A stretch of 63,718 nt of DNA, counting the filler, from Reclinomonas americana ATCC 50394 (Eukaryota), in NCBI GenBank assembly GCA_048213135.1. It is 6 parts of 6 records of this genome, joined end to end, with 100 filler letters (N's around TTAATTAATTAA, not from the genome) between each part and the next. Parts side by side here need not be neighbours in the genome. Positions count along the whole stretch, not along the records: positions 1 to 21,596 come from PS015871.1; 5 more parts are not named here. One strand, 5' to 3'. Below are positions 1-45,815 of this stretch, piece by piece. Position numbers and translations under genes: made by a program. The number at the start of each line of letters is the position of its first letter. The first letter of the stretch is position 1. Under the pieces are notes generated by a model that saw only the letters and a program-made list of their open reading frames with translations, made no database searches and was not told where the DNA came from.

Positions 1-1066
1 TGGGAAAAACAGCATTCACTGCACCTTGTGCATGTCTTGTTGATGTTTCTTCAGCGCCGACTTGGTGAACATGAGCTGCTCCTCGAAGAAGGCCTTCTTC
101 GAGCGGAGGCACACGTCACTGTGGATTGGGGGAGATATCAGCAAACAGAAAACTCATAAAACTCACAACAAACGACAATAACATACCAGAAATGCAGCTG
201 ATGGGCGGTACGGGCGTGATCCTGCAGCTCGCGAAGGTGCTTGAAGCGATGTCCGTCGGCACACGCCGAGCACGTGGGCCGTCGCAGATTCCGCAGCACC
301 GTCAGCGTCTCTCGACTGTCGGCATACACCTGCCACACGCGATCGAGCTGCAGACCATCGGGGCCACTACCGCTGCCACCGGCGCCCTCCGCCTCGGGCA
401 CCTCGACGCGATCCGCCACGCTCTTGGCCCGCATGAGATCCTCAAAGCGCACCGTGCGATCGGCCGTGACCACCAACTCGGCCATATCCTGCTTGCACAG
501 CGGGCAGCGCCGATCGCGATGCAGCACGCGCAAACGGAGCGCGCACAAGTGGCAAATGTCGGGGTGGTTGCAGGGCCCAACGCCCCACAGCCCACGCTCC
601 TCAAAGCACACCACGCAGTGCCGACCATCGCCACTCGGACTAATCGTCACTGTCGCGGACGCCGATTCCGCAGCTGCAGTCACCGGCAGCTGCATGCGTG
701 CCGGGCGACGCGCATCCGCCGGCTTGTTTCTGTTCCTGTTCCTCTTGGAATGTGCTGGCGCCGAGTCCGCGTCAACTGCGTAACGGGGAGCCATTTTGAG
801 ACAGGGGGCGTATTTCTGGCTCCTTTTCTCTATAAGTGCATACCGCGTGACTCTGCAGCCGCAGTGTCTGCACCGGCGTGGCCTCCACGTCGACGTGGAG
901 GCGGGCGAGGTGCTGCTGCTGCTTCTCCGGATCCGCCTGCTGCCTCTGCGCGTTCTCCTCCTCCTTGTCGTCGCGGATGCTGATGGCGACGACGAGCAGA
1001 GGAAGGCATGTGAAAGGGAGGTGCATCGGAACGCAAGGAGCCTCCACCGCCACCGGGATCACTCAT
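1..1066 (-). CDS. ZNF598: RING E3 ligase, ZNF598/Hel2-like (ribosome quality control); 3' part runs off window
   Basis: RING CVVC..CNHPDICHLCALRLRVLHRDRRCPLCK followed by C2H2-like fingers (CSAC..FKHLRELQDHARTAH, CDVC); GT-AG introns near 776-843 and 119-186. Confidence 0.8.
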
Positions 1067-3318: not shown

Positions 3319-4481
3319 ATGGCGAACATGGGCAGGTAACATTGTTAGAGAGAAGCTCTCCTCACATCTCCCTCCATATCCTCACGCATGGCGACTTGTG
3401 TGCAATGACAGACGTGTTGCAAGGGAGGTGTCGGTGCGTTCAACACCCCCCCCTCTGCACTCACTCACTCACTCACTCAACTCACACTAATGATGCTTTG
3501 CCTCTCTCTGTCTCCATTGCGCAGGATCTGCTGACCCGACCCGAGCCCGGCATGGTTGTGCGTCGCGGATGGGAAGTGAATGATCGGTACTCATCGTCTG
3601 TCTCACTCTCTCTCCTCCCTGCTCCTCGCCTCTCCCTCTCTCTCTCACACGCACTCTCACTGCCACAGATACCTCATTGTCAATCTGGACGGCCCGCCAG
3701 GCACTCCCTACGAGGAGGGTGCGTGTGCATCACTCACTGCTGTTGTCTCTCATACTCTCACCTCACTCACTCGCAGGCACCTTTGTTGTCGAGTTGTTCT
3801 TGCCTGGTTCGTCTCCCTCTCTCTTTCCCTCTCCACCTCTCATGTCGCCGCCACACGCTCACTCACTGATGATTGCAGACGAGTATCCTCTCGGTATTGT
3901 TCTTCTCGTTCTTGCCTCCTTTCCCCTCCCGCTTCTGCCACTGAGCGTTGCGCAACAGTGCCACCTCGCGCGCGGTTCTGCACTCGCATCTACCATCCAA
4001 ACATTGACCGAGTCGGGCGCATCTGCCTCGATCTGCTGAAGGACAAGTGGTGCGAGCTCACTCCCTCCGCTGGCTGCTGTTGGTGTGATAGAGTCCTGAC
4101 GCTTCTCCGTTGCTGAACAGGAGTCCGGCACTGACAATCGAGAAGCTGTTGTTGGCGTTGCAGGCGTTGATGTGGTGCGTGCTCTTTTGGGTTCCTGGCC
4201 GTCGCTCCGTTCTCATTCCTCGTGCGCAGCGATCCGGAGCCCGATGATCCTCTGGTGATTGTATTCTTGAAGGAAGTATGGTTGTTTTGCGCCACCACTC
4301 ACAGCGTGCGCTCGCAGGATACGACCGCGGCCGATCACTGGAAGAGCGATATCGAAGACGCGCATGCCGTTGGTTCGTGTGGGTGTGCTTGGCCTACCGT
4401 GCACACACACGCATTGTCTCCTCACTCGCTGTGTTTTTCACTACACCAGCTCGAGAGTGGACGTCGCGCTTCGCCACCTGA
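3319..4481 (+). CDS. Ubiquitin-conjugating enzyme E2, Ubc13-like, copy 2 (11 exons)
   Basis: Spliced product [86 protein letters not shown]. Confidence 0.88.
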
Positions 4482-4629: not shown

Positions 4630-7600
4630 CTACGGATCGCTGGTGAGATTTCGCGTCGTCATGAGCACTCGTCGCTTCGTCCAGTGGGCGCGGTCGTCGC
4701 AGCGGAGGCGAGCGTAGCCCAGCAACTCTGTGTCGTCGCAGCGAATGTGATAGACCGGGCACAGGTACGCCGTCGCCACATCCGAGTCACGCCGATCAAA
4801 GGACGCCGGTCGAGCCCACAGCTGNNNNNNNNNNNNNNNNNNNNNNNNNNNNNNNNNNNNNNNNNNNNNNNNNNNNNNNNNNNNNNNNNNNNNNNNNNNN
4901 NNNNNNNNNNNNNNNNNNNNNNNNNNNNNNNNNNNNNNNNNNNNNNNNNNNNNNNNNNNNNNNNNNNNNNNNNNNNNNNNNNNNNNNNNNNNNNNNNNNN
5001 NNNNNNNNNNNNNNNNNNNNNNNNNNNNNNNNNNNNNNNNNNNNNNNNNNNNNNNNNNNNNNNNNNNNNNNNNNNNNNNNNNNNNNNNNNNNNNNNNNNN
5101 NNNNNNNNNNNNNNNNNNNNNNNNNNNNNNNNNNNNNNNNNNNNNNNNNNNNNNNNNNNNNNNNNNNNNNNNNNNNNNNNNNNNNNNNNNNNNNNNNNNN
5201 NNNNNNNNNNNNNNNNNNNNNNNNNNNNNNNNNNNNNNNNNNNNNNNNNNNNNNNNNNNNNNNNNNNNNNNNNNNNNNNNNNNNNNNNNNNNNNNNNNNN
5301 NNNNNNNNNNNNNNNNNNNNNNNNNNNNNNNNNNNNNNNNNNNNNNNNNNNNNNNNNNNNNNNNNNNNNNNNNNNNNNNNNNNNNNNNNNNNNNNNNNNN
5401 NNNNNNNNNNNNNNNNNNNNNNNNNGGGCGCCACATCCTGCGCCGTGGTCGGATTGCCGACGTTGAACTCGAGCGTCACGCTCTCCATCGACACGCGATT
5501 CTTGCGCGCGTAGGCCACACGCAAACTGCTCAGCAGCGACGACGGACGCGCCACGTCACCCAGGTTGATGGCTAGCGGCGCACCCGAGGCAGTGTCACTG
5601 GCAAGCCACTCGCGCAGGGCGGCGACACGCCGCAGCACCACTTCGTGCACGAACTGATCGATGGGAGCCGACACGTACATGTCTGCGACACCGCGGCTCC
5701 CGCTGCTGCTGGTACCACTGCTGCCGCAGTGCGCCAGCCACGACGATGGCACACCGGTGCGTGCCAGCAGCGCGTTACGCACCTCGTCAAAGTCCTCACG
5801 AGGCCGGCCACCACGCAGCACATCCAGCACGCCACGCAGACTGCCACCGATACTGTCGAGCAAGTCGTTGCATAGTGTCAGCTCGTCGTGCAGCACCGCG
5901 TTGCAGGGTGTGTGCAGTGTGGCCGGTCGCTCGCGTCGCACCCGCGACAAGTCGAACATAGGTGGCAGGCGCTGCAAGGCGCGCGTCACCGCCGTCGACA
6001 CGCGCTCCGAAGCGGTGAGTGGCAGGCCGGCATCCATCAGTGCGCCAACAGCCACATCATCCAACTGCTGCTCGGTGCCGTCCACGGCATCCACCTCGTT
6101 GCCGCTGCTGGTGCGCTCCAGAGGTCGCAGGTGCGACGGCATGTTGAGTGCCACCAGTACTTGCTCTCGGTCGCGGTTGTAGCGGAGAGGCGCCACCGAG
6201 TCAAACAAGCCACACAGTGCCGGCGGCACGCAGTCGGGAAGGCGACGCACACGTTCCTCCAGCGTCAACTCGTTCACATCAATGGCAATGGCCGCCGTCA
6301 GCGTCTCAGCGGCCGGTCGCACATGAATCAGTCGGTGCACCTCAGTGGCAATGCTGAGGCGGCGCGTGGACGTACGATCGATCGGGAACAGCATGGTGTC
6401 CGGACCGCCGAGGAAACTAGTTTGTACGGCCGGACCGCCTTTGCTGCCTTGTCGCAGCATGCGCGGCAGCGCCGTCGCCCCTTCATCGATGCTTCCGTCG
6501 ATACTGACGCGCAAACGAGTCATTGTGGCGGCGACCTTATCCGGCTCACGGAACACGTCTTCCACTAGCGCAGCCAGCACTAGCTCATCCACATGTGTGC
6601 GCACACGACCGCCTGTGTACGAGAGGATTTTTGTGAGTGAAAACGCGCCGCTGATGAAGGCTTGTACTTCCCAGCAAAACTCACCATAGATGCACTCGGT
6701 GAGCATCTTGCACAGTGTCGGCAGGCACGACTCGTCGGCCGCCGCATTGCGCATCACGCCACGAAGCATCCACAGCGAGTAGTCGACATCGCCGCCGGAG
6801 AACTCGTACCGTGCGCTCCAGCCATGATTGCCGTACTCTCCGCGCTCCAACAGCACCGCGTGCAGCATGGAGAGCAGCACCAGCGTCCGATCCCACAACT
6901 CTCGTCGACTGGTCGACATGTCGCCCATGGTCGGCACAATGGTCTGCGACATGACTTCCCCAGTGGCGAGGCTGCTCAGCAGGCGATCTCGCAGCGTGCG
7001 ATGCGGCTCCCACGCAAACACCACCGCCTCGTCCAACAGCGAGGCGGGAACGCCGGAACACAGCGCACTGTGCATTTTAAAGGGCCTCTGGTTAGTTCCT
7101 TTGGATCTCACTACGAGGTGAAGAAGTGCTCGCAAACCTGGTCAGCCACAGACGGAAGTCGCTATGCACCGGCACGTTGCGATCACGCAGCACGTGTCGC
7201 AGTTCATGCAGCTGTGCTTGCAAGCTGCTCGAGTCCAGCAGATGCAGGCCCTGCAGGACCACCCAGTGGCCCCAGACCATGCTCTGAATCATGGCCGACC
7301 GATCAAAGGAACGGTTCTTGTCGCCCAACGCCACAATGCTCACTCGGTCGCGCATTTGCATCGCCGTGGCCGCATCCAGCAACGCCGACAGCGCATCGTG
7401 CTCGGGACTCGACTGCCACACCAGAATCGGTGTTTCGCGTGTGCTGATGCGCACCAATGGCCGCAAGTCGCTGACATCTTGCGTGTCGGCAAACGCCATA
7501 CCCAACTCGTCGTGCTGCACAGAGGAGACCGTGAGGAGAGGAACTCAAGAGGCTAAGCGACTGCATGCACGCCAACACTCACCAGGTACTCGCGAACAGC

Positions 7601-10600
7601 CGGTTGGAACTGATCCGGCCGCAAGGCGCACACCACCAACAGTCGCGTGAACGAGGTCAGTCGCGGCTCCGGCACAGTCAGCGTCGAATCGTCATCCTCG
7701 CTCTCGACAGGTACATCTTCCTGGATGTGCCGATGGCCGCCGGCGTTTGCGTTGCTTGCGCGGCGTTGTTGTTGCTGGTGAAGCGACGGAACGGCCAGCG
7801 ACATGCGACGCATGTCGACTGCACCAGAATCACGCCGCTGCGACTGCTGCACCGACGGGCGTCGTGAGTCGGTCACAGCCGGCGCAGCTGCCGACGCCAA
7901 CACTGAAGGTCTCCGATCACGCGATTGCTCAGACGCCGGCCGCTCCACAACAATCATAGAGTGGCGGCGAGCAGGATCTTCCTCCGATGCACGTCTCTCC
8001 GTGGCCAGCGACCGCAGTGGCTGTGTGCTACTGCTGTCGGCGGTGGCGACTGATGGCCGCCGACTTGGGTCTGACGGCCGTCGTTGAGAGTCGGCAGTCA
8101 GCGGCGACGACAGACGACCGTCCAGTGATCCTCGGCCGAGGCCTTGCGACGCCGGCCGTCCTTCCGACTGCTGCCGAGCGAGTCCACTGTCACGCGGCGA
8201 CTGATTGGAGGTTGACTCTGTGCGCGAGCGGTACGGCGTTTCGCGTGGCGCGAGGCGATCGCGCGCCGGCACCACCGATTTCGGGTCGACCTTGGGAATG
8301 GCCCACGCCATGCCCGGCAGGGGCCACAGTGCCGACTCGGCGTGGTCGTGCCACTCCTCCCACTCGTTTGAGCTCTTGTGAATGGCAGAAATCAGATCCA
8401 CCGTGTTGGTGGCCACGCAAACGCGCAAGAGTCGCTGCCAGCGTCTCTCATCAAGCCAGTGTGGCGCCGTGCGGCAGGCCTCCGGCACCGCGGTCAAGTG
8501 CTCGTCCAGATCGCGACCGGCGGCCTCAAACGGATCGAGCAGCAGTCGCCATTCGGCCGTTGTGATCCACCCGGACGCGAGCTGCATCTTGCTGCACATG
8601 AGCAGGCCGAAAGCTAGTCGCTCACGCGAGAACAAAGAGCGCGAGGCGGCACGATACAGAGAAGCGTTGAACTCCTGCTGCACCTGCAACTTCCACTGCT
8701 CCAGTGCACGTTCTTCCCACTGGTTGAAGGCGGCAACGGCCGCCGCCTGCAGTCGCTCTGTCGCCTCCTCATCAATCTCACCAGTGACCGAGTCGTACAC
8801 CTCGCTGCCGTCGTCGCTTTCACCATCGAAACACGCAGCGCTATTGACGCCGTGTGGCGACAGCGACGGCCTGGCCAGCGCGACGGTCTCCTCCAGCGAC
8901 AAGCCCAGGAACGAAGATGGCTCCGGGAACTTGACGCGATCCAGAGCCTGCTCAAAGAGACCGCGCAACCACTTGCCGGAGTATGCCGTGGTTGCCAGCC
9001 GATGCGCCGTCAACCCACGCAGTAGGAGGAAGCAAGTCACGGCACCGTCGGCCAAACTCTGGTATCGTGCTCGGCGAGCCACCAATACTTGTCGCTGTCG
9101 TTCCAGCTCGGGCAAGTGCACGGCAAGACGGCGGGCCCGCTCGCGACAAGACTCCAAGTGCATCAGCAGCTCATCGCTGTCGACGAGAGCATCCATGTCG
9201 GTGTTCGCCACTGCCGTGACCACGGCGATTTCGTTTTCTTCCAGTTCCTTCTTCTCCCTGGTGTGCACCTGCTCGTTGCGCAGACATTTCGCCTCCAACT
9301 CGGCATCTGTGTGCATATGCACCAGACACACAATTCAGTGACTGCTTCTTATAGATGGAGAAAAGTGCACGAACCTCGGCGAATGGCCACATCGGCGCGG
9401 AGGCGATCGCGGAGTGACTCAACCGTCGGTGTAAAGTTGATGAGGTTGACGTATGCTGTCGAGTAGTCAATCTGGCGCACGAGCACGATGAGACACAGAC
9501 AAAAGGAGCACGACAAAAAATGGACAGTAGTGCGAATAAGTGTCACCGACCTTGCTTGGCGGTGAGTGCCGGCGAGTGATGATGAACAGACGGAAGTCTG
9601 GATGAGGATCCACGGGACCATCCGGCAGCACCAGGGGACCAGTCTCGTGCACTTGTTGCCACTTTGTGTTCATGTGCCGAGTGAAGACTGTTAGCAACCA
9701 ACAGACCAAGCTGCACGGCTGCGTCGACTCACCGGTCGCTGCACCAGTCGGAAGAGGTACGACGACAGCTCCTCGCCCACTTGGACAATCAGAGTGGTTC
9801 CGTTGACCACGGCATTGTTCACATGCTGCGCAATCGAGTCCTCCAAGTCGAGCACCATTGATGCGGCTGGTGACATGGCCTGAATCCACTGCTGGCAGTT
9901 CATTTCCGGATCTGCAATGCCACAAAATGTGAGTCGTGGCCGAGGAAACAAGATGCACTGTGACACGACCAACCAATGATAAGAGGCCAGGTACATGACT
10001 GGCGCTCAACGATGCACGTGATGATCCCGCTCTCCGTGTTGGAATCATCGATGAGCACATTCTTGGCGTGCCACTGCGCAATCTCTTGCGGCTGCGTTCG
10101 AATGATTGTCAAAGTGAGAGGAATGCAACACTCCACAGCGAACAAAGTCGCGACACGGACGCAACGTCTCCAATGGCGGCGATCAGATTGAACGATCCCG
10201 GCTGCAGCTCAAACATGGTCTCCCATCGCCCGATGATACGTTTGCGGAACTCAATAGGCATCGGGGCGCCATACACCACCACGCCAGCCGCCATCATTGT
10301 CTTCGCAGTGACCACCAGCATGTCCTTGCGCAGTTGCACCACTTGTGCCTCCCAGCGTACTTGTTCGCGAGTCAGCGATTCTACCAGGGCCTTGGCTTGC
10401 ACGAGTCGACGAACTGCCACTTCCAGCTGCAGACACACATATAGCATGAGAATGACAGTACAAGTGCAAGCATTCCGTGCGACAAAGGACCAACCTGCAG
10501 CTTCATCTCCTCCTGCCTACTCTCCAGCTCGTCGGCCTTAGCCTTCAGCAAGTTGTACTCTCCGGTCACACGCATGCGTGCTGCGTCCTTGGTTGCCAGT

Positions 10601-13600
10601 TCCTCACGCAGCTCAATCAGACGCGCATCAATCTCCTTCAGCAGCGCCTCCTTCGGTTTGAGACTGTCGGTGATGGTGCGGTACTTTTCCGAACTGCTCA
10701 GCCACGAATACAAACGGAAGGCGGCCACACTTGACGACGCCAAGCGCTCTGCACTCATGTCCGGGAGCGAGAGGTAGTGGCGAAGCTGGCGCAGTTGCAG
10801 GTCGGTGAGGTGGCGCGGCTCCATGCTGCGCAGGCGTGTCATAAAGTTGTCGGAGAGCAGTCGGCGACCGGCGGCCCAATAATCCAACACATGACTGCCG
10901 GCACTGGGACCTGCAACGCGGTCTGGCGACACCTCAAACAGCACACAAATGCACTCCATGGTGATCTTGAGGGCCGCCGAGGGAGCCTGAATGATGCGCA
11001 GTTCGGCGATTTCGCGTTTGCTCAGTTGTGAGATGGCCTCCTGTGCGTTGGCCTGCAGACACACACACACAGCGAAGACAAGTTAGTGAGTGAGTGATTG
11101 AACGACTGGAAGAGTGCGAGTGGACCGACCAGCGCAGGATAGGCACGAGACAGTTCGAGTGCACACTCGTCACGCAAGCGTTGCGCACGAATGTTTTCCT
11201 CTTTGGCATTCTCTTCCTCCTCCATGCACTGGCGTTGCGCGGCGTGGGCGGCGGCCAGGCGCTGCGGCAGCTCCTCCATGATACCCGCACTCTGCAGAGA
11301 CACTCAAGTTGTAAACATCATGCGTGGCAAAAGCGTGTGACAAGCGCGCGCGCGACGCACCTGCTCGCGTGCCTGCCCGATCTCGATCTGCAGTCATAGG
11401 TTTAGCACACTGTTGCATCGCGAACGAAGGGAGCATGGAAGACTGCCACACCTGCAGTTGAACTTGTCGGTGCTGCAGGGCATCGACCTGGTCAGTGGCC
11501 TTGAAGAGACACGCGAGTCCTTGCTGCACTGCCATGAGACGCCGCGACACGGACCCGAGGTGTTGCACGAGGAGCGGTTGACTGACGCCGAGGTAGCGAC
11601 CAAAGGTGACGCTGTTCACCACGGACGGCCACGTATCCTTGAACTCCAGCGACATGCGTTCGGCCTCCTGATGCACCTGCACGGCGATGCGCACAATGTC
11701 CTTCATGTCGTCTTCGGAGACCTGTTCAGACTCGCGCAGACTGGCAAATGCATCCTCGGCGAACGCGCGCAGTGGAATCGCTTCGAAGCTGCAAATCACA
11801 CAAGAAGCGTAAGGCATTGGATGGTGCAAGGTATGCAGTGCTGCCGCGTACGCACCGGTACACTGTCGCTGCCGTCACGGTGCTCTGATGATGATGCAAG
11901 TGGGTGGCGAACTTGAAGGCAGTCTGGTCGACGCAGAACATCACGTGGAGGTTGCTGCGCACGCGACGGCGGAAGCATGCGGCGAGTGCACGCGGTCGAA
12001 GAGCTTTTTCGTTTGCAATGTCGGTCCCCGTGAGAATCCCGGCCAGCTGCGCAAGTGCCGCGGACCATTCTTCACGCGAAAAGAGACCTGTGTGCGCACG
12101 AAGCGTGGTGCTCCATTAGCGACAAAACGCACACGACAATACACAGGCCAAGAGGTGACGACAAACCTGCCACCTCGCCACCGTCCATCAACTGAGCCAG
12201 ATCCTCCCAGCAACTCTCACTGGAGAGCTGATCGTCGCCGACAAGAAGCGCCACTTGTTGCGGATGCAACATGGCAGCGCGCAGCACCACAGACCGCAGA
12301 TCGGCGCGCCACGCCGCATAGCTCGAGTCGTGGACCAGCGAGCACGATGGTGGCTCGAACAGTTCACAGTCACTCACAAACGCTGCAGTCGACAACAGGA
12401 GTGATTGAGGTTGCTTATTCAAGGTCTGTATGTGAACAAACACAAATGCGCACCTGCCAAGCGACACAGTGAGCGACGACCGGATCCTCGCTGGCCAATG
12501 ACCAGGGCATGCGAGTGTGGTCGACGCAGCACGCGCTGCAGTCGACACAGGTGCATCACTGTTTCCTCTCGAACAACAATGCGCAGTGGCTCTTCGCTTG
12601 CATGCGTCTATGAAGAAGCGCAGAGATGGTTAGGAACGATCGCCACCGCGCATTGTACTCCACGTTGAGGCACGCAACTCGAGTGTAGTGGTCAATATCG
12701 TGACGCACGCGTTGTGTCAGCGCAGTTGAATCTCGGACTTCACGGTACAGCAGAGCGCCGACCTCGGAACCCTCGCGCTCAAAGGCTGCATTGCGGCGTG
12801 TGAGTGCATGGGAGAGAGAGCTCCGTGGAGAGTGCATGTGCCGCCAGCTTACCGAATAGAACCGGGTCCTCACTACGATACACCGACGTGTCGCTGTCGC
12901 ACTTGGTGCGCAGCGCCGTAAGCACGAGGTCATCCACACGACGGCGATCCGACTCGAACACTCGATCGGCGTACACGCGATACATCTCGTTCAGCCACAC
13001 TCGGAACACATCTTGCGGCTCGCACTGCCGCAAATCCACGGCCACCACACCACGCAACACGTCAGTCAGAGTGCTCATGGTGAACGTGTAGTGTGGTCGC
13101 ACGTCGGTGGGCGGCATACTGCGTCGCAGCTCCTCGTAGACCATAATCGACGTGTTGACAATCTTCTGCATCGCACGGTACACATCGGCGGAGAAGTCAC
13201 GGGCGCACGCTGAGAGCATCTCCAGCAAAATGTGTTGCAGTGTGGTCGTCTGTTCCAGAAGGAAAAATATCTCGGTTAGTATGCTATGCACACCTCCTGA
13301 TCCTTCCAGCCGCCGGTGACGCAACATTCTGCTCTGGTGAATGAATGCACCAGAAGTGGCGTGCGAGCTTGCTTGGCACCGGCACGCGCTCGTCCGCAGC
13401 GCCGACGAAAACCGTGTCCTCCAACTTGAAGAGAGTGCGCGAGCGCGGATGCACGAGCTGCTTGGAGCCAATGGTGCTGCGCAGCAGCTCCAACGGTGCG
13501 TCGCTGGTGGCGGCGTGCACCACCTTGTCCACATCGTCCACGTGCACCACGGCCACCTTGTTGGCAGGTGCACCGAGAGCTCCCGACCTGAGGCGCTGCA

Positions 13601-16600
13601 GCTGCGACTCCAGTATGTCAGAGACCTGGAATGCGGTGTGACTGGCGGCGAGAGGAATGCGAGAGAACAGCCGGCGTTTCTGCGAGCTCAGCGCCTCGTG
13701 AATGGTCGATGTCTGTGCACAGTTCATAGGTTAATCGGGGAGTCAAATATAATGCGATTCGTGCCGCACATTGTCGTCTCACCTTGCCGTTGCCGCGCGG
13801 ACCAATGAGCATCATGCTTAGTCCATGGCTCGTGCCCAGCCGCAACAAATGGGCCATGCGCACCGACTCGGTTGTGCTGCGCAGACACTCAACGTGGTGA
13901 GCTCTAACAAGTCACACGACCTAGTCTTGTCAGCACCGATGGTCTCACTCACGGGATAAAGACATCGTCCAGCGGCATACTCGGCGGAGTCAACTGCAAG
14001 GCCACGCTCTCCAGCCACGTGACAAAAGTGCCGGTGATGTCCGAGTACACGTAATCGTGCAGTCGTCCCTCCGCCGGCAACGCATTGACCAGTCGAACAC
14101 GAGGTGGTGTCTGTGGTAACTCGAACACGGGCAACTCGTACTGCTGCTCGCCCATGTTGGGAGCCGATTGTGACTCCTCCGCCTCCAGGCGCATCAGCTC
14201 ACTGCGGGCAGTGTCGTCAGTCAACTGGCCGATCATGAGGCGATCTCGTTCCCGGAACGCACCTGAACACATATCGACCCTGGTCGCTCATCTGTGCACC
14301 GACTGTCCACGTCAGTGCAAACACAAACGCCTGCTGCACACGGACGCGCTCTTCCGTTCGCACACCCTGTTATCATCAGTGTGCGACTCGGCGATGAGTA
14401 CACAATTGTTTCGTGGTCGATGTGGATGCTGCTGACGTACCACGCGCGTCCGAGCAATCTCCAGCATCAGCGCTTCAAGGACCTCCACAAACCAGCGAGT
14501 GACAGCAATCTCCGAGTGTGGCACCGGATTCTTGCCTTCGTTGAGCAGATCCAGAGCGCGCACAAAGAGCCTGCGTGTTTTTCACATGTGAGCACCGACA
14601 AGGAAAAAAAGAAGTTCACGATCATTCCGCACCATTCCATCATGATCGCAATGTCACTCGACCACAGGTGCACCAGCGGCGGGGCTGTGGCCAGCCATGA
14701 ACGAGCAATCGTTCGCCACCCACCGTCCAGAGTGGAAGGCTGTTGTAATCGTCCGCATCAGTCAAAAGACAAAGAGAAAAAAGGGTTGTACGCGTGATTC
14801 GTTGCTTACCATGTGAACCACGCCGGCTTGGCGAATCGTGGCCGGAGACGCAGCAGCGAGGCTGTCGGTCTCGAAGATGAACGAGCACGTCTTTGGCACA
14901 ATCAGTGTCTCGCACGACGGCAGCACCAGTTCGTTGGGGTGTTCCAGCGCGGTGCTGAGGCTGTCGGCCCACGCGCCGATTGGACCGTCCAACACAAACC
15001 AGTGGCGCTTGCGAGGATCATTTTCCTCAATGTGCTTGCGCAGCGCGACAAGAAGGTAGCCATCGACCCATTCGTTGGAGCGTTTGTGCAGTGACTGTTC
15101 ATATTGTGCAGAGGGGCAGTGAGCGAAACGACGCAGTGCTGGCGACATGCAATAATGAAACAGCACGCACTCCAATCAGATCGGTAGCGCGCATGCCACC
15201 CGGCGTGAATCTGGCCAGTGCAATGGGGGCCTGATCGGCCAGACCGTTGAGCGCAGACATTAGCACAGACACAGCCGTGGTCTTGCCCGAAAGCGACGGG
15301 CCAACCAGGATGACACCTGGCAATCAATCGATGGGGGTAGTGAGCACACCAAATCTTCATGAGCAGCGCATGCTGACTGACCGGTGCGAGAGGTGAGGTT
15401 CTGGAAGAGTTCCAGTGTCTTGGCCGCAAAGGTGTTTGCGCGAATGCCGCCAGCTGCCGCTGCATCACTGTCTGACATGACCCAGGCGCCGGCAGCCAGC
15501 TGCTGGTGAGCGCGCTCCAAACACGTCATGGTCAGGTGCCGAGCCGACCCTTCAGAGATGATGGCTTGCTGAATGCGCTCGTCCAGTGCATCGCGAGCCG
15601 ACGGCAGTGGGCACGCTGACGGAAACAGATCACTGCACAGTTGCTGGAACACCACAATGTCGCACGAGTGCAGCCGTGGAAGGAATGCGCGCACAAAAGC
15701 GTCGCACACCACAACCAGTTCGTCGGCAGACGCTCGAGAAGCTCGTTGTTTCACTGCAATGACACAGGCGCAGGGTGTGAGCTGGTTTGAATACACACAC
15801 GCGCGCGCGCAACGCAGAGAGATGGACGCAACACGCAGCCAGCAAGATGGTCTTGAAGGTGGGCGCCGAAAAATCGTAGTGGGCCTTCTGTGACAGAACG
15901 TCACTGGCAAGTCGGAAAGCCGCAGAGAGCTTTCGTGCCAGTGTTGTCGGGTCGCGGAATCCGTGAGCGGCAAGGGTAATCTCGGCCACCAATTGCAGGT
16001 CCGGCATGGAGACAAAGGTCGGGCGGAACAGCGACCGCAGGTACTCGGGCAAGCCACTGCTGGCGCTACGTGCCGCACTGGCAATAGACACTGTGGCAGT
16101 GATTGCCGTTGCTGGATCGACCCTCAGGTCAGTGCCGTCAATGTTCACAGTTTCCGACTCGCGCAGAGACAGATTCTGCATCACGTTCCACATGTGCTGC
16201 GCCAGCACCGACACCACGTCGACGCGCAAGTTCTGGACCTCGGCCAAGCACATCCACGCTCCGCACGCGACTGCACCTTTGACCAGCTGCAAAGCAGATG
16301 CCACATCCACCGTGTCCACACAGTCGAGGCGGCGGAACTGCCGACCGCACAGCCTCGACAAGTCCTCCAACATGGCCACACGACCAACTCCCGGAACACC
16401 AGTCTGAATACAAAGCAAGTGAGTGTACAAGATACCAGTATCAACGCATACTGGGTACGCACCAAGCACGCTCCAAGACCATACGACACCGCACTTGTGA
16501 CCGCACGGAAAACGTGCTGCGTATCGGGTGTGAGAACTAGACGCGGCAGGCCGCCGAGGTACTCGAATCCGTAGTGCATGGTGCAGTCCATAATTCGCAG

Positions 16601-19600
16601 CACAATGTCCACACTGTCGGCATTGGAGGTGTCGAGATGCAGCCGCACTGAGCCCTGGAAGGCGAACTCATCGGCCGATGGCGCCGCCTGCGTGCGCGAT
16701 GCCTCCGCCAGCAGGGAGCCGACCAGGTCCCTTGAATGCAGGTTTTGTGTGACGAGCGCCGACAAGGTGAGTTGCTGGCTCCACGAGCACTCGCCCGAAC
16801 GCAGCAGCTTGAAGAGCTGCTCATTCTCGCTGGCAATTCTGTTCTTCAGCTTTCGCAGCATTGAGGCGCTGTCTGACCCGCTTAGTGCGTCGGCAAACTC
16901 GGCGGATCTGCACGCAGACAATCATGAGACGAGACGACAGCGCGACGCGCATTTTTGCACACGATGTCGTCACTACTCACCGGACCAACTGCAGTACCAC
17001 ATAGACCGCTTGCGCAGGCCACTTGACAGCCTGCATCTCGTGGTGTGAGACAGAGTAAGCGACAAACAGCACACACATATGCTGACGCACCCACTGCGAG
17101 ACACTGCTCTCCTCTCGCGAACGGCTGGCCAGCATGATGAGCCGACGCAGCGACTTCTTCATCGACTCCTCGAGGTGACCGAGCCAGAGTTGCGGCTGCT
17201 GCATCTTGGTGGTCACACTTTCTGTGAGCCCAACCAAATCGCGGAAGCTACCGGAGATGGCCTGATGTTGGCGCGATGATGTGAGCGCAAGAAGCTGAAA
17301 TGTTTGCTGCTACACGTATCACATACCGACACGGTGCCCGAGTCGTCCATTTGCAGGTGGTAGATGCCAGGGAAGATGCTCGGCAAGTACCGCTGAATGT
17401 TCTTCGAGTCGATGGTCACCTCGGTAAACAGTGATACCAGTTGACTGTCGGACATGAAGAAGAAGCGCGGAAACACCATGCGCTTGCGCTCAATCCACGA
17501 ACTCATGCCTGCGTTGGATGGAAATGAAAAATGGACCAGCAACAATCGACATGGTGTCGCTGCTGTCGTACCGTGCTGAACCCGATCGACGATCTTGCTC
17601 AGCCGTCCAAACTTGAGTGAGAGAGAGGCATGCGGAACGGCAGCCAGCGATCTGTTTGCCTGCGTCTCCTCGACGATGATCCGAAGCGCGTCGTCCAGCA
17701 TACCAAACACTTCGGTCTCATGCGGAAGTTCCTGTGGTGCAGTACCGTAATCAGTCAACGCAACAGTTTTTGCGTATGGCAGGCGGTGGGGAGTGGCGGC
17801 ACCTTGCGAATGAGTGGCACAGCAAAGAATGGACCCAACGACACCCACACAGGCTGAATGCGATTCCATGTTTGCAAGACATACTTGGTCTGCGACAAGG
17901 AAAAAAGGCGAGTGAGTGCAAACGTCTGCACCGCCACGGACCTCATGGCCACTTGCCTGGTTCAGCCTGCTCAGCCACTCGGTGGTTGGTCGAATGTGCA
18001 CATGGATCAGTGGGTGACACATCAGTTGTTGGGTGCGTGCAATCTGGTCGTCGAGAATGGTCTGCCACGATGCGCACAAACATGATGAGTTGACAGAGAG
18101 GCTGCGTTTGTCCACGACCTGTGGCGATTTACGTACCGACAGGCTGCTGGTGGAACAAATGACATGCGTGTCGCCGTGTGGCGCGGTCTTGATTTCTGCC
18201 TTGCGCAGCTCGAGACGCATCGACTCTAGCAGTTTTTCTATCTGGAATTCCTGCATGGCGCGCTCACTGACATTGCGCAGCTGCACCTCGTACACCTCCA
18301 ACTGTGGAAACATCGAAAAAATGAGAGCTGTGTCACAGCACGTTGCAGAGTTGTGAGCGATGCAAACGCAACATGTCGAGAAATGACTCCGGCCAGAGTC
18401 TCATTCGGCAGTGCCCTGATGCGCACACCGCAAACTTTCTCCATTTCCTCCCAGTGGCGGTCACGCATGCCGCCGTGGCGCAAGAGGTTGATCACTGCAC
18501 GAGAGATGTCATGAACACGCACACTGTGTGGTAANNNNNNNNNNNNNNNNNNNNNNNNNNNNNNNNNNNNNNNNNNNNNNNNNNNNNNNNNNNNNNNNNN
18601 NNNNNNNNNNNNNNNNNNNNNNNNNNNNNNNNNNNNNNNNNNNNNNNNNNNNNNNNNNNNNNNNNNNNNNNNNNNNNNNNNNNNNNNNNNNNNNNNNNNN
18701 NNNNNNNNNNNNNNNNNNNNNNNNNNNNNNNNNNNNNNNNNNNNNNNNNNNNNNNNNNNNNNNNNNNNNNNNNNNNNNNNNNNNNNNNNNNNNNNNNNNN
18801 NNNNNNNNNNNNNNNNNNNNNNNNNNNNNNNNNNNNNNNNNNNNNNNNNNNNNNNNNNNNNNNNNNNNNNNNNNNNNNNNNNNNNNNNNNNNNNNNNNNN
18901 NNNNNNNNNNNNNNNNNNNNNNNNNNNNNNNNNNNNNNNNNNNNNNNNNNNNNNNNNNNNNNNNNNNNNNNNNNNNNNNNNNNNNNNNNNNNNNNNNNNN
19001 NNNNNNNNNNNNNNNNNNNNNNNNNNNNNNNNNNNTTTGCGTGACTTTATGGACACACTGGCTCCTCTGGTGGATATTTCTGCGTCCGAGACTTTGGCTG
19101 CTGGTGGTATGTGTGTATGTGTATGCATGTGTGTATCGAGACACAGCCATCTCACTGTCAAGTGCACAGTGGTGGAGAAGGCTGAATCGGTGGCCTTGGT
19201 GGCCAGCACCGGTGCGTCGCGAGTGACTGACATTGAGGAGGCATATGTTGCTGTGTTCCGCGAAGCGCTTGATGCACTCGCAGAGCGTGGTCGAGCCATT
19301 GAGCGTGTCCTCAAGGCACCCGAGTGTTGCGTCAGTGCTGCTACAGCGTCCTATTCGCTAGACCGTCGAACCTCACGGATCTGCTGCATACAGTGTTCTT
19401 CACGGCATTCCGCCTCGATGTGAGCGAGGCTCGACGCGTTCTTCGCGAGCGCGTACAGCACGCCATGACCACCATCCTCGACCACCTGTGCAAACATTTG
19501 GGCGAACGAGTGGTGGTGCTGAATGAGAGATACGAGAGCCTGTACCATAGCATCGCCAGGCAACCGGCCACGCCCGATGGTGAGCGCTCCTTGATGTGTG

Positions 19601-21483
19601 TGCCTGCAGACTGACACAACAATATGGTACTCACCAGGCGTGCCGTGCCGCACACAGACTTGCGCTTGATGAAGCACATTGTCGAGCAGCATTCTGTGGT
19701 GTCGGAGTCGTGGATTGAAGAGGTGCGATCCATGCACTCGGTGCTGCAAGTGCTCGACACGCACCGCCGTCTGCTGTCGGACGACCAAGCTTCGCAGTTT
19801 TACACCCTGCAACAGTGGCCACGACGTGTACACTTTGCCATGGCTGGTGAGANNNNNNNNNNNNNNNNNNNNNNNNNNNCAGTGGCGTGAAGCACTCTCA
19901 GTGGCTGCGAAAAATAATGGCAGGTGGCAAGTTTGACGCACCGCTGCTCGGAAACATGGCACTGCTTGAGGGCCATGTCGTAGGCGTGTCTCGCATCGGC
20001 CCACGACTGCTGGTGAACTTCCTGTCGCACGGCGGGAGGCAGACGTGCACCGGCCAGTGTCCCCACTCGTCGCTCAATGGAGCGCACAGTGTCTGTTTTG
20101 ATCAAGCATCAGCGTACATGCAACTGTTGCACGGGAGCGACAAGAACGCACCGTCGCTAAGCGGCGTCACCACTGCGTCGGACACGTAGTGACTCAGATG
20201 GTGTTCGAGACGCGCAGCGTACTCGGCTCGTTCGCGCCACATCACTGCGTGAAGGATGCGCTCGTTGAGCAATTCCGGTGACTCCATTTCGAAGCGCAGG
20301 TTCAGCCTGCAAACAATTGTGTCAGTTTACATGGCGGTGCAAGTAAAGGGCACAATGACTGGTCTCACCGGCGGACATGTTTCTGATGCGTGGAGACACT
20401 CATGGTCGACGACCATTGGATGAGGAAGAGCTCGCTCACGGGGTCGTAGTGCAGCACGGTGCACGGTCGCCACTCCCACGTGTCTGTCCCGGTGCAGTAA
20501 ATGGAGAAGGCATGAACCACGTCCTGTGCGTGCGCTTGTCAGTCAACAGGCAAGTGAATCGAAAAAGTCAGGTGCGCAACAGTCTTGGCGATCCAGGTGA
20601 ATGGTGCCAACTGCTCGAGTGTGGGGTCGTCGAAGAGATCGAGGGGCAAGAAATGGCCCAACGGCAGCTCGCCAGCCTGCCATCGATTGTACTCGTCGGG
20701 TGTGAGACGCCGCTCTGCGGCCAGCTCGTTGGCCACCTCTGCCGTGATCGAGACGGTGCTGTGGCTGCGAGTGGTGCGCGTGGTGTACGGTTCATCGGCG
20801 CCAGAGTCGTAGCTGTCAATGCTGGCAAACGCCGCCCGTCCGCGCTCCACCTCGGCGTCCTCGTCCACCTCGTCGTCACTCTCATTTGCCTCTTCCTCCT
20901 TTGCCTCCTCTCCTTCTTCCTCTTCTTCCTCTTGTTCTTGCTCGTGGTCCTGTGCAACATCAACAGCACTGCTGTCTCCCACGTCAGTGCCGGCATCCTG
21001 TGAATCCACATAGTCCGCCCCATCGTCACGGTGCTGCTCGCCCGGAGTGGAAGGTCGGGGTGACTGGGTGGCGCGAGCAGACGGCACTCTGAACGAGAGA
21101 CCCTTGCCAATGGGAAATTCGTCGGCAAGGTCGCCACGCAGTCTCAACTCTGTGTTGCTGTGCTCGCCCATGTGACCGACTGTCAGTGTGGCGTGTGAGG
21201 CCGCCAGCAGAGGCGGGAGCGACGGAATGATGCTCGACATTCGACGGTGACGATTGTAGACGGCCTGCGGCAGCGGCGACGGTGTGCGTGCTTGTCGCGG
21301 GCTGGAGGGGCACGATATGCTGCCGCGCCGTGATGGTGGTACCATATCTGTAACGGCTGCGGCAGTAGCAGGGGTGGTGGTGGTGGTGGTGGTCATCTTG
21401 ATCATGATACACGGGTCGGGTCTGTTGTCTTCGCTGTCTTGCGCCGATGGTGGTCGCAGTGGTGACGCGCTCTGGTCGCGATA
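4630..21483 (-). CDS. Divergent axonemal inner-arm-type dynein heavy chain (DNAH1-like N-terminus); gapped, 5' end uncertain
   Basis: N-terminal LPLDLFDD..W, WRPCTVLHYD, RLNLRFEMESP; linker KRMVFPRFFFMSD, YGFEYLG..RLVLTP; AAA2 GPSLSGKTT; AAA3 GPRGNGKT; AAA4 GQRGSGRRS; stalk/MTBD; AAA5-6 (FRLWLTS, YGGRV); C-terminal YLCPVY..HWTKRRV. Confidence 0.92.
19036..19851 (+). other. Dynein tail exons on the opposite strand between two N gaps (probably a mis-oriented contig)
   Basis: + strand spliced exons (VFFTAFRLDVSEARRVL..YESLYHSIARQPATP..LQQWPRRV) resemble the inner-arm dynein stem missing at this point of the - strand gene; bounded by gaps on both sides. Confidence 0.75.
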
Positions 21484-24600: not shown

Positions 24601-27600
24601 CACGGCAGTATGTATGCAGGTGGCTGTCGATCCAGCGTACGCCAGCTTGGAGGCCATGGAGGCCACCTGGACGTCGTACTTTGTGGACGCAGTGTGTCCG
24701 GCAGTGACCATGGTGTTCGAGCGTGAGACCATGGTCGAGACCCTGGGACTGCGTGTGTTGCGTGTTTCTTGGCCGTCCAGTCCCATCCTTGCTCTCGCTG
24801 ACCGTGTCATTTTGTTGAACCAAACACCCACAGCGACGGCAACAACCTCGGCTTGCTGCTCGGCAGTTCGCTGGCAGAGCTGTATGAGGGCACCGAGGAC
24901 AAGGCGCTACAGAATGCACTGCTGCGTTGTCTGCAGATCATCAATCGCGCCGGCTTCTTGATCGGCGACGCCATGGAGGTGCGCAGGGTGAAGCGTTTTC
25001 TCTCCCGTGTGCTTCTTCTTGGCATTGACGTGTGTGTCTGTCACAGCGTTTGCTGAACCTCCCACCACGGGTAGGAAGTGGCGGTGATGGAGCTCTGACC
25101 GAGAAGGTGAGCGACGAGGAGCGCGCTGTGCGTGCGCGGTTTGCCGAGATCATTGAAGCACTGTTGCGTCTCGACCGCGTTTGCACCTGGTGTGTGCCAC
25201 ACTCGCGAGTCCTGATCATGTGACGAGCGCAACAGACGCGACAATGAAATGATTGCACGCGAGTCGGCGGCTCTCTGCCAGCTGTTCAGCATCAAGGAGG
25301 AACCGAGTGGTCGCTTGGTCAACGCCGAGCGTCTGGTCACATTCATGCGGTTTGTTTTTGTGGAGCTCGAATGCTTTTTGTCTTGCATTCTTGCTCGTGC
25401 TGATCTCGGCGTGTGATGGGGGGGACAGTGAGAGCATTGAGGCCGGCACAATGACGGAACTCAAATTGCAGCCGTTGTTTGTGACGGCACTGAACGTGTT
25501 GACTCAGCTGCTGCAAATGCACGGCTCTGGCGAAGATGACGACGTGGCGGAGGAGAAGGTGCTGCTGCAAAACGACCTCAACAGTCTCGGGGCCACTGAG
25601 CTGGTGGTGTCGCTGGTGGAGACGGGAGACGAGGATCTTGTGCGCGAAGCTATACACTTTGCGGTTGAATTCCTGGACGGCGGCAATGCCGACGTGCAGG
25701 TGCGTGTTGCCTTGACTTGATGTGTCTCAAATTCAGCTGCCTCACTCGCATTCGTCTACGCAGCGCTCCTTCTTTGAGGTGCTGGCCAGTCATTCCAGCG
25801 AAAAGTTCTACAAGGAGCTGCAACTGCGCATGCATCGCTCGGTGCTGGAGACCAAGAGTCGACAGAAGCTGGTGTCGAGCAGCCGTCGTGCGACTGTGGA
25901 GAAGGGCGGCGATGGCCAACCTTCGTCATCGTCCTCCGACATCTCCAAGGACTACACGTGGCACATTTTCCGCCTGCTGCAGCTCTTCTGCGAGGGTCAC
26001 AACTTGGAGATGCAAAATTACCTGCGTGAGCAGCCCGAACGCCGTGCCAACGTCAACTTGGTCCGCGAGGTCGTCGACTATGTGGTGGCGCTCGAGCGCT
26101 TTATCAACGACGACAATCTGCACATTATCACGCAGGCCTTTGTCACTCTCACGGAGATGATGCAGGGCCCGTGCATGGGCAACAAGGTGCGTGAGTTTTC
26201 TTTTTCATGGTGTGTGTGGATGTTGTCTCACCCTCACCCTCTGCTCCCTCCCTCCCTCCCACAGTTGACCATTACGCAGTCGAAGATCTACGTGGTCGTC
26301 AACCGTTTGCTGGTCTTCTCGCCAGACTCGATGATGAACGATCCGGCCTTCCTGGAACTGCAGGTTTGTGACTTGTCGATCTCTTTTGTCTGCAAAACAT
26401 GGTCGGTGACATAATGGGTGTGGACGTAGGGACAAGCGGCCATCACTGCGCGCACGGTGATGGAGGGCGAGCACTTCCCGAGCGGCGTGCAAATGCTTCG
26501 CGAGAGTCTCGACATTCCGCACATGGTAGGAAATGGAAAAAGAACATTGTCTCCGCAGCTACACTCACGCTGCACTGCATGCACACGCAGATCTTCCGCA
26601 TGGAGAAGTTGCAGAAAGTGCTGTGCGTGCCCATGGGCGTGACGCCAGAGTCGTGGGGAGAAGACCTGGCCACCGGCATGGATGTTCTCGAAAAGGACGA
26701 AGTGCTTGGTGCGCAATTCCAAGTCGGCCGCATCATGTACGAGCTCATGCGGTACTTTGCCGACGAGCCCGAGTACCACGGAACGGTCTGTTGCATCGTT
26801 CTTTCATGATACTCCATTGCCGCCTCACATGTGTGTTTTGTGCGCAGTACGATGAGCTGTTGAAGAACATTTTCCTCTTCCCAAAGTTCACGGGCCGTGT
26901 GGAAATCGTTCGCGACAAGCGACTCGAGAAGGTCAGGGTGGTTTTGCCCGTCCATCATCATCCGTTGCTTATGCATGATTGCAGGTGTACTTCCCCATTC
27001 CACAAATCTGCTTCTGTCTGCCTGAGGAAACCAAGGAAGCATTCCACGATTCGTTGCGTCGACAATGAGAGGGAGGGAGAGGAGGCTTGGTGAACAGTAT
27101 GATGACAAGAAATGGCGCGCAGAGTGGAGCGTGAGAACGCAACGGCCAAGGCGCACGGACTCTTCAAGGCGCACCCCTCCATGATGAACCAGATGCGACA
27201 CGAGGTGTGTATCATCATTGCGTCGACCGTATGATTTCTGTGTGTTTTCCTCAACACACACGGCCACACGGTGTCGCCACTGTGCAGAATCAACTTCGCC
27301 GCAACCTCTTCTTCCGTCCCTTCCGACAGCACTATCGCACGCTGCAGATGCTGAGTTTCGGCCTGTCGCTGCTGATGAATCTCATGCTGCTGCTGTCGTA
27401 CGAAGTCCAGGACCGTGACGAAGATGGAATGTTGCGTGTGTGTGTGCATGTTGTGTCACCGAACCTCCGTTGAGACTAACGGAGCGCGCGTGTATGTGTA
27501 GTATGGCGGGCCATCGCAGCTGGATGCTGGCACCAATAGTGCTCTTCATGGGCTTTGTACACACCATTGTCACCATCACGCTCTTCTTCATCTACATTGT

Positions 27601-30384: not shown

Positions 30385-32667
30385 ATGGCTACAACGATCT
30401 CATTGACCGTGCCGAAGGTGCGTGTGACTGTGTGTGTTTCCCGCGCAACTTGTTTGGTTTCTCTCTCTCTCTCTTGTGTCTCACTCACGCGCTCTCTCTC
30501 TTCTTGTGTGTATGTGCAGATGTCGGTGACGGCCATGGTCTCCAAGGCCGATCAATCGTTGCGTGTCTTGTGCTGCTGCTTGAGACATCGCGCGCGCAAA
30601 AGTGGAGATGGCGCTCTCTTTCCTCTCTGCGCGCGCGCTCTCTCTCTCTATTCACTCACTCACACTCGACTACGCGCCACAACAGAACCTTTGTGCAAAC
30701 CGCGAAGAAGTTTGTGCTCGGTGCGTGTGTCTGTGTTGTCGCACATGCCACTCTCTCTCTCTCCACAGCACACTCCTCATCTTGTGACACACACAGAGAA
30801 CAAGGTGATGGCGGTGGCCGCTGCCGTGTGCCTGTTGCGTACTCGCCTTCTTTGTATGCGCATCTCTCTATGTGTTGCACTCATGATCGCGCTTTTATTG
30901 TGCTCAGTGGAGGAGGCGCGTTCATTGTGCGTCAGTTGTACGACAAGCGCGATCGTCCACTGTCGAGTGTGGCGACCATGGCGTCGGCGAATGAGAAGCC
31001 GAATGTGAAGGTCGACAAGCTCTTTGCCAAGCGCATCATTCGCATCCTGCGCATTCTCTTCCCGAAGCTCTACGGAAAGGAAGTCGGCATGCTGGTACGC
31101 TGCTGCTGGTTTTCTCTTTGTTGGTGTTGTCTGGTGTTGTTGTTGTTCACCGCTGCTGAATAGATGTTCCTGTCGGCGTTGCTGGTCGGCCGCACGTTCC
31201 TGTCGGTGGAGATTGCCGATCGCATGGGAGATGCCGCCAAGTCATTGGTCGATGCATCGTGGGAGCGCTTCCTCGGTGCTCTCGCCAAGTTTCGTGTGTC
31301 GCACCCTTCGTTCACAGCACAGCGCTCACTCCCTTTCCCACCGTTGCAGGATTGTCTTGGTGTGCATCCCGGCGAGCTTTATCAACTCGTTCCTGCGCTT
31401 CGCGACGCAGAAGCTGTCGCTGCTGTTCCGCCGCAACCTGGTGCGCCGCATCCACCAGGACTACCTGACGGACCTGACCTTCTACAAGGCCGCCAACATT
31501 GGTCGCCAGCGCATCGACCAGGCCGATCAGCGCATCACTCAGGACATTGAGAAGTTCTCGACGTCCATCAGTGAGCTGTACACCAGCACCTTCAAGCCCA
31601 TCCTCGACGTGGTGCTCTTCTCGCGCAAGCTGGCCCGCTCGGCTGGCCCCGAGGGTCCGTTCCTCATGTTCCTCTACTACTTCCTCTCCGGCACTCTGTT
31701 GCGCTCCATTACGCCACCGTTTGGCAAGCTCACCTCGGAGGCACAAAAGCTGGAGGGCGAGTTCCGCAACTGCCACTCGCGCCTCATCCGCTCCTCGGAA
31801 GAAATCGCTTTCTACGGCGGTGCTCCCCGCGAGCGTGAGATCATCAACGGTGCCTTTGACGACCTGTACCGACACGAGTCAAGCATCTACAAGAAGCAGG
31901 GCATCATGGGCGTGTTTGAGAACGTTGCGTGGTGCGAGGGTGCAGTGTGGAGCAGGCATCACAATTTTATCTCATCTTTCCCCCCCTTTTCCTCCCGCAG
32001 TTCTTTGTCAAGTACGCCGCCTCGTTGGTGGGCTACGGTATCTGCGCGCTGCCGGTGTTCGGTCCGGGCGCTGCCGCCAACCAGACGAGCTCGAGCCGCA
32101 CGCAAGACTACGTCACCAACACGCAGCTGCTGATCAACTTGGCGCGCGCCATTGGCCAGTTGGTCATGTTGTACCGCCGTGTGATGACACTGGCCGGCTT
32201 CACCTCGCGTGTGTCGGAGCTGCTGGAGACGATGGGCAAGAAGCACGAGACGCTGGCGCTGGAGCTGGCCGGCATGGCCGACGATACGCCGCCCACCGAC
32301 CCGCAGGACGTCAGCGACCCGAAGGTGGCTCGTGCGCGCCGCGCAAGTGGCGTGCCGGTGCCGGGCGTCTACCGCACTGGCGAACTGATCAAGTTCGAGC
32401 ATGTCGACATTGTGACGCCCGACCGTACGGTGCTGGCCACCGATGTCAACTTTGAGATTCGCCCCGGCACCAACTGGCTCATCTCGGGACCCAACGGCTG
32501 CGGCAAGTCCAGCCTGTTCCGCATTCTCGGCGGTGCGTGGGAGGGGGCGGAAGGGATTGGAGTGTGGGGGAAAGTGTTTTCACTTTGAGTGTCTGCAGAG
32601 CTGTGGCCGCTGCCGTGCGGCGTGGTCACCAAGCCGGATGCCAACCAGATCTTCTACATTCCGCAGG
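30385..32667 (+). CDS. Peroxisomal ABC half-transporter, subfamily D; 3' part lost in gap
   Basis: DQRITQDIEKF, KPILDV, EGEFRNCHSRL..SEEIAFYGG (EAA motif), LAGFTSRVSEL, Walker A GPNGCGKSSLFR, FYIPQ. Confidence 0.93.
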
Positions 32668-45556: not shown

Positions 45557-45815
45557 AAAACCGATGCACGCAAGCATTTGTACGAGTTGTTCCGAAGTTT
45601 GACAGCGACTTTCGATACGCACGACACCGTTACGTGAGCTGTCTTCACGCTCAGCGAATAGCCACTGTCAGTCTTTTCCCGCTGCCTGCTTGTGCACTTG
45701 CGTCGACAACCGACTTCAAATCGCCCTTCGAATACCAGACACTCTCCGCCCAACAAGGACAACCGCGTTTTCCTCTCTCTCTCCGCTGAGCACGCACACA
45801 CCCCTTTGATCAAAC

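Follow-up and report, generated by a model that had tools for sequence, protein, structure and literature searches.

Dynein heavy chains regarded as non-motile have so far come from animals, where DNAHX was recognised by structure and DNHD1 by prediction. AAA1 is the module that drives the dynein power stroke, and mutagenesis of AAA1 abolishes motility (PMC2533788); a mutant of the AAA1 Walker A lysine is immotile and shows a constitutively high affinity for microtubules (PMC3937092). DNAHX (sea urchin XP_041462850) is described as a non-motile subfamily derived from the outer arm and found only in animals. It is trapped in the ATP-bound pre-power-stroke state and not in rigor, it pairs with another heavy chain to give a phi-shaped heterodimer, and its AAA4 small domain contains a folded insertion (10.1101/2025.01.18.633724). 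In DNHD1, AAA1 is poorly conserved and devoid of the catalytic Walker B residues (10.1101/2025.01.18.633724). This chain has been termed an orphan or ghost gene (PMC8754002), its class, DHC11, is reported from metazoans only (PMC5100056), and loss of zebrafish dnhd1 gives fewer and shorter cilia whose motion is unimpaired (PMC9749982).

Outside these two cases, Kollmar (2016) reported 75 orphan heavy chains and eight new classes as intact genes which keep the tails of their parents, and predicted that both new classes and orphans dock by tail type; that study left the ATP sites unanalysed (PMC5100056). Chlamydomonas DHC12/pcr4 (DHC_A) is described there as a divergent motor on a DHC8-like tail (PMC5100056). 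A literature search, which left most subscription journals outside its coverage, found no paper on an AAA1-dead protist dynein derived from the inner arm. Proteins of this kind are known; what appears undescribed is this particular lineage, the class from which it descends, and how far its AAA1 loss goes.

The window, i.e., the whole stretch of 63,718 nucleotides of Reclinomonas americana ATCC 50394 that was analysed, holds a full-length dynein heavy chain gene on the minus strand, which runs from about 21400 to a stop codon at 4630. Tail, linker, six AAA modules, stalk and microtubule-binding domain, and C-terminal domain are all encoded in one chain. Seven of the 12 pieces of the gene match a dynein family in Pfam, and the families follow one another in the order AAA_6, AAA_7, DYN_lid, MT, Dynein_heavy, and Dynein_C. 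Between 18498 and 5427, 36 introns of 54-79 bases each were traced. Across them the frame is open for 3,522 spliced codons with neither stop nor frameshift, so that the in-frame splicing claimed in the preliminary description is borne out and the frameshifts expected of a pseudogene are absent. The acceptor at 17037 is not AG in a second copy of the gene (described below), and when it is shifted to 17031 the count becomes 3,520 codons. One intron (17956-17890) is of the GC-AG type, and the donors at 18372, 15832, 13325, 12678, and 10165 have in common an unusual six-base sequence, the exact site being uncertain by 3 bases.

The 5′ tail exon (20566..21405, minus strand) was recognised by translation and by its tail match. 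It encodes an acidic low-complexity stretch followed by the start of an inner-arm-type N-terminal module, and the true start of the gene may lie upstream, beyond the contig end. Further tail exons (19882..20538, minus strand) continue the N-terminal module that is common to the IDA-a-type DHC7 tails and the DHC8 tails. A tail-coding piece flanked by two N gaps (19036..19852) stands on the plus strand; it has the orientation of the gene in the second copy and is a mis-oriented contig. Another tail piece is reversed in the second copy, at about 148900-149640 of G000:C86. A tail exon of about 1 kb present in that copy (C86 145760-146726) is absent from the window behind a 27-base gap (19853-19879), and parts of the tail are sequenced in neither copy.

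The linker and the start of AAA1 occupy nine exons (16463..18498, minus strand), defined by the gene model and by the start of the Pfam AAA_6 match, and are followed by the AAA1 core exon (15833..16403, minus strand; AAA_6 E 8e-40), in which Walker A, Walker B, sensor I, and sensor II all lie. The remaining features are likewise on the minus strand. Walker A of AAA2 (15279..15302) and that of AAA3 (13710..13803, interrupted by an intron at 13782-13713) both retain Lys and Thr, in agreement with the preliminary description. The AAA3 exon matches Pfam AAA_7 (E 1e-13), and its Walker B contains two Asp but lacks Glu. A Walker A-like motif of AAA4 lies at 12470..12496. The microtubule-binding domain and part of the stalk are encoded at 10495..11052 (Pfam MT E 2.6e-9). 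The score of 37 bits indicates a diverged domain. Residues 2-162 of this exon align with MT profile positions 93-247, that is, 161 residues over 155 positions, and by this alignment it is without a large insertion. The buttress, the AAA5 small domain, and a low-complexity insertion (7583..9306) come from the gene model and have no Pfam match. The insertion, read by eye, spans roughly 200 residues ahead of AAA6 (about 8280-7670). AAA6 follows at 7138..7514 (Dynein_heavy E 4e-13), and the end of its lid and the C-terminal domain at 5427..6612 (Dynein_C E 1e-18). The N gap which bounds this last piece is filled in frame by the second copy. The last exon with the stop codon is at 4630..4824. The stalk, microtubule-binding domain, and C-terminus had been described as retained, and the Pfam matches agree.

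The motifs reported earlier for AAA1 were all found as claimed, on the minus strand. Walker A (16377..16400), normally GPAGTGKT, reads GVPGVGRV, with Lys>Arg and Thr>Val; Walker B (16230..16250) reads CLAEVQN, with Asp>Ala and the Glu retained; sensor I (16083..16094) reads TVSI, with Asn>Ser and a remodelled loop; and sensor II (15861..15881) reads HYDFSAP, with Arg>Pro. The arginine-finger motif of AAA2, which acts on AAA1, is likewise present in the reported form ASPATIRQAG (14851-14822), where Arg>Gln is accompanied by an Arg one position earlier. The register of these motifs is fixed by the alignment of the 190-residue AAA1 exon with human DNAH3, which is end-to-end and almost gap-free (E 7e-29). 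The catalytic positions are named as is usual for dyneins and as in the DNAHX preprint.

Five of the six AAA1 catalytic positions are therefore altered, together with the arginine finger. From the residue set of an active motor (Lys and Thr, Asp and Glu, Asn, and Arg of AAA1, plus the AAA2 finger), the Walker B Glu is the sole survivor. The description of AAA1 as dead is a prediction from sequence, to be qualified by the retained Glu and by the Arg which precedes the finger position. For comparison, 153 dyneins were aligned over AAA1, namely, the best 150 of 2,303 hits plus three cluster members. Among these, the Walker A Lys is present in 146/153, the remaining seven being uncovered there, and the Thr in 142/153, with four Ser and seven uncovered. 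The Walker B Asp occurs in 149 and the Glu in 150 of the 153, the sensor I Asn in 148, and the sensor II Arg in 150, with two uncovered. Because each residue is near-universal in this set, the combined loss is far beyond normal variation, and the contrast is conservative since the set is biased to divergent chains.

An AlphaFold2 prediction for the AAA1 exon gave a pLDDT of 83.5 and a TM score of 0.87 to dynein-2 (4rh7), whereas a prediction from two sequences only gave 40.9. By the first model the exon has the dynein AAA1 fold. Driven as it is by 57 mostly canonical homologues, the model informs on the fold and not on the state of the pocket. In all likelihood, AAA1 is unable to bind Mg-ATP productively and hence gives no power stroke, because the ligands of phosphate and magnesium are lost, and the predicted gene product is very probably non-motile.

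When set beside DNAHX, the gene is similar in being full length, in having the same Walker A Thr>Val change, in having both sensor I and sensor II altered, in being judged non-motile, and in coexisting with canonical paralogues. It differs in depth of loss, since in DNAHX Walker B and a basic sensor II remain and ATP is bound (10.1101/2025.01.18.633724), whereas the Asp, the sensor II Arg, and the finger Arg are all missing here. The two differ also in origin, as DNAHX derives from an outer-arm chain and this gene, by tail and tree, from single-headed inner-arm chains. DNAHX has insertions in the stalk and binding domain, whereas the binding-domain exon here is without large ones. With DNHD1 the gene has in common an altered AAA1 and the character of an orphan chain; the catalytic Walker B residues are stated to be absent from DNHD1; here the Asp is lost and the Glu retained, and in the relative P0001 (described below) both are changed. 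DHC12/pcr4 is alike in combining, in an intact gene, a divergent motor with a DHC8-like tail, a combination also found here. In the study of DHC12/pcr4 (PMC5100056), which left the ATP sites unanalysed, inactivity was not shown. Compared with the canonical DHC7 and DHC8 chains, the domain order, the tail type, and the closest motor sequences are in common. Those chains keep all the AAA1 catalytic residues, and the branch of this gene is about ten times longer.

The tail was examined with a query joined from both gene copies. A profile built from 11 tails of the IDA-a/DHC8 type, picked because they already clustered with the query, gives it 280 bits, vs 49, 33, 24, and 5 bits on four other groups; the first half of the tail scores 143 bits on the same profile, with E values of 0.11 or worse for the four other groups. 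This tail type is carried by the trypanosomatid IDA-a, DNAH1, and Chlamydomonas DHC2, and the gene has accordingly the N-terminal tail of single-headed inner-arm chains of the IDA-a/DHC8 type. Searches of PDB and Pfam with individual tail exons yielded nothing useful, and matches to CagX and to a designed propeller were dismissed as chance.

In a quick motor tree of 20 rows and 1,777 columns, from which 11 of 31 rows were omitted for run time, the gene falls within a group of DHC7 and DHC8 (SH-aLRT 100), on the DHC7 side (98), with an end branch of 4.6 vs a median of 0.41 and an atypical composition. For groups named after the first tree had been inspected, placement with DHC8 is not rejected (p-AU 0.132) and placement with DHC9 is (p-AU 0.0048). 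Motor identity to the closest chains is 26-34% over trimmed columns, the top value of 33.5% being with the DHC7 of the same genome. As judged from tail and motor, the parent class is DHC7 or DHC8, and it may be from DHC7 (IDA-a type), and not from DNAH1, that the gene descends. This inner-arm origin is apparently separate from that of the animal non-motile dyneins.

The genome contains 90 AAA_6 matches, from which 30 loci were examined, two of them being the pseudo-dynein gene. The 28 other loci comprise at least 12 other dynein genes with a canonical AAA1 Walker A, haplotype pairs being counted once. Canonical DHC7, DHC8, and DHC9 genes are separately present. The C440 gene is closest to DNAH3/DNAH7 (243 bits vs 203 for DNAH1), and the C97 gene is closest to DNAH1 among mammalian chains (123-125 vs 103-107 bits). 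A separate canonical DNAH1 ortholog had been proposed as a check, and both DHC8/DNAH1-like and DHC7 genes with canonical AAA1 do lie elsewhere in the genome. Because canonical dyneins including the DNAH1-like C97 coexist with it, the pseudo-dynein is an extra gene and not the DNAH1 of the cell. A weak AAA_6 match (G000:C47:55608-55895, E 2e-4) lies within a 9,428-codon open frame, perhaps of a midasin-like or bacterial giant protein.

A second assembled copy of the gene is present on G000:C86, with 97.3% identity over 13.2 kb and a syntenic flank, and is for these reasons most simply the other haplotype. Haplotypes are assembled apart elsewhere in G000 (e.g., C97/C16, C113/C149, and C182/C424), with a synonymous difference of 3-7%. 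The size of this two-haplotype assembly, 108 Mb, and its short introns would suit a protist. The AAA1 residues of the two copies are the same, and a canonical AAA1 Walker A was not found in either. An alternative exon restoring the motifs was considered and rejected, as all four motifs are contained in a single exon of 571 bases, flanked by introns of 59 and 79 bases. Over the 3,522 codons the copies differ at 160 synonymous and 22 non-synonymous positions, giving a dN/dS of 0.045, and in AAA1 there are 12 synonymous and no non-synonymous differences. By a cruder method, which admits some intron bases, the value is 0.067 for the gene vs 0.063 pooled over seven canonical dynein pairs of the same genome (range 0 to 0.18). 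Of the indels between copies, 18/20 fall in introns or outside frame-sensitive exon parts, and the other two are of 9 bases each, one in a low-complexity exon and one at a contig edge. The gene is under strong purifying selection, level with the normal dyneins of the genome.

Among 1.84 billion database representatives, the top match is P0001, with 57% identity and 218 bits, the next being at 116 bits. P0001 is a 194-residue frame on a 2.2 kb contig and begins just after Walker A. The Walker B Asp>Ala change and the loss of the sensor II Arg are common to both; P0001 has Glu>Asp and lacks the sensor I Asn. In a quick AAA1 tree the two form a pair with a support of 100; the stem measures 3.57 and the end branches 0.8 and 0.72. 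Such a long stem with short end branches points to rapid change followed by constraint, the decay of the site predating the separation of the two hosts and its altered form being maintained afterwards. The open frame, the low dN/dS, the conservation of AAA1 between copies, this relative with a like loss, and the separate canonical DHC8/DNAH1-like and DHC7 genes uphold the earlier idea of a maintained pseudo-motor.

None of 4,726 candidates among proteins of 334-2000 residues was a further relative, which is weak evidence; a two-sequence profile gave eight matches, with P0001 as the sole close one; two metagenome scans confirmed 0/184 and 0/598 pattern matches as relatives; and an Atlas search returned generic dynein clusters only. 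A search with P0084 for DNHD1-like proteins gave three matches, none named DNHD1. Groupings with the Cymbomonas orphan P0027 (0.87 in FastTree, 88 in the AAA1 tree) and with other odd dyneins in the AAA1 tree were set aside as long-branch joins, and the kinship with DNHD1 suggested in the preliminary description is at most putative. Altered AAA1 motifs were seen in further database dyneins (P0009, P0027, P0033, P0036, P0084, and P0125). A sandfly 'DNAH7' among the altered dyneins has changes in the Walker B Asp-Glu and in sensor I, and a Cymbomonas chain has the Walker B Glu changed. AAA1 decay looks recurrent among dyneins. A protist case with a different parent class, a fuller AAA1 loss, and the constraint of a working dynein would show the origin of pseudo-dyneins to be a repeated event and their function to be a real one.

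Regarding function, the reading we prefer, with slightly less than an even chance of being right, is that of a non-motile dynein held in the strong microtubule-binding state, where it would serve as a static cross-bridge or brake; the scaffold, brake, or tether of the preliminary description is plausible. On this view, a single-headed inner-arm chain of the DHC7/DHC8 group was duplicated, and the copy would have lost its AAA1 ATPase and then come under new constraint. Without release triggered by ATP, the head would remain strongly bound to the microtubule, as in the Walker A lysine mutants; the tail would dock the dynein at an inner-arm position and the stalk would hold the neighbouring doublet or another microtubule. 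The resulting cross-bridge or brake would damp sliding in part of the flagellum, while the Walker A motifs of AAA2 and AAA3 would bind nucleotide and hold the ring together. The strong-binding step could be wrong, because DNAHX is locked in the opposite, pre-power-stroke state. The kept Walker B Glu, the conservative Lys>Arg change, the Arg adjoining the finger position, and the diverged microtubule-binding domain (37 bits) would also speak against it. Since beating would suffer if every repeat carried a permanent rigor bridge, the model requires a restricted placement. A bolder form, which we consider unlikely, is that of a nucleotide-insensitive, rigor-locked lineage derived from the inner arm and conserved across at least two distantly related protists, where it would form a permanent cross-bridge of microtubules. 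If true, nature would have produced its own equivalent of the laboratory AAA1 rigor mutant, a solution opposite to that of the weak-binding, ATP-locked DNAHX, and a direct test of dedicated passive brakes shaping the axoneme beat would become possible.

It is somewhat doubtful that the protein is instead a partner in assembly or transport, which like DNAHX would be locked in weak binding, pair with active single-headed dyneins, inhibit them, and aid their delivery into the cilium. The phi-shaped heterodimer of DNAHX (10.1101/2025.01.18.633724), the reduced number and length of cilia with unimpaired motion after zebrafish dnhd1 loss (PMC9749982), and the long low-complexity insertion before AAA6, a frequent feature of orphan chains (PMC5100056), are consistent with such a role. 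However, the tail is of the single-headed type, the Walker B Asp and sensor II Arg are lost, unlike the Walker B and basic sensor II of the ATP-binding DNAHX, and nothing in the binding-domain exon corresponds in size to the DNAHX insertions. A non-motile bundler or anchor of microtubules outside the axoneme, e.g., in flagellar roots or in the cortical or feeding cytoskeleton, is improbable, given that a whole inner-arm-type tail is kept and points to axonemal docking (PMC5100056). Even less credence is given to a slow or non-canonical motor that remains active through AAA3 or through what is left of the AAA1 chemistry. The kept Walker B Glu, the charge preserved by Lys>Arg, the Arg near the finger, the intact AAA3 Walker A, and the retained linker, buttress, and ring would allow it, but the changes at five of the six AAA1 positions and at the finger occur jointly, the Glu is changed to Asp in P0001, and the AAA3 Walker B has no Glu. 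That the locus is a decaying pseudogene or an assembly artefact is exceedingly improbable. The very long branch, the scaffold gaps, the mis-oriented tail pieces, and the tail parts sequenced in neither copy might suggest it; against this stand the 3,522 open codons, the dN/dS of 0.045, the 57%-identical relative P0001, and the indels, of which 18/20 lie outside frame-sensitive parts and the other two are of 9 bases. Whichever role applies, the gene offers a natural mutant for asking what a non-cycling dynein does (brake, spacer, or chaperone), because its stalk tip looks intact.

A ubiquitin-conjugating enzyme gene (3580-4480, plus strand) is arranged tail to tail with the dynein gene, its end lying about 150 bases away from the dynein stop, and beyond it lies a ZNF598-like RING gene (141-1058, minus strand). 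In a Pfam survey of the frames of the window, 15/150 were matched. The matches include an IP3/ryanodine-receptor-like gene (25716-26411), a peroxisomal-type ABC transporter (31009-32585), and a transglutaminase-like gene (34311-34850), together with a serine carboxypeptidase (37640-39988), two matched stretches of p25-alpha (45810-46544), and Sec1 (58065-60489). None of these Pfam-matched genes is evidently linked to dynein. The sole small-subunit rRNA match in the assembly is a bacterial 16S gene (L035, G000:C1:279109-280629), which indicates that a bacterium was co-assembled with the eukaryote.
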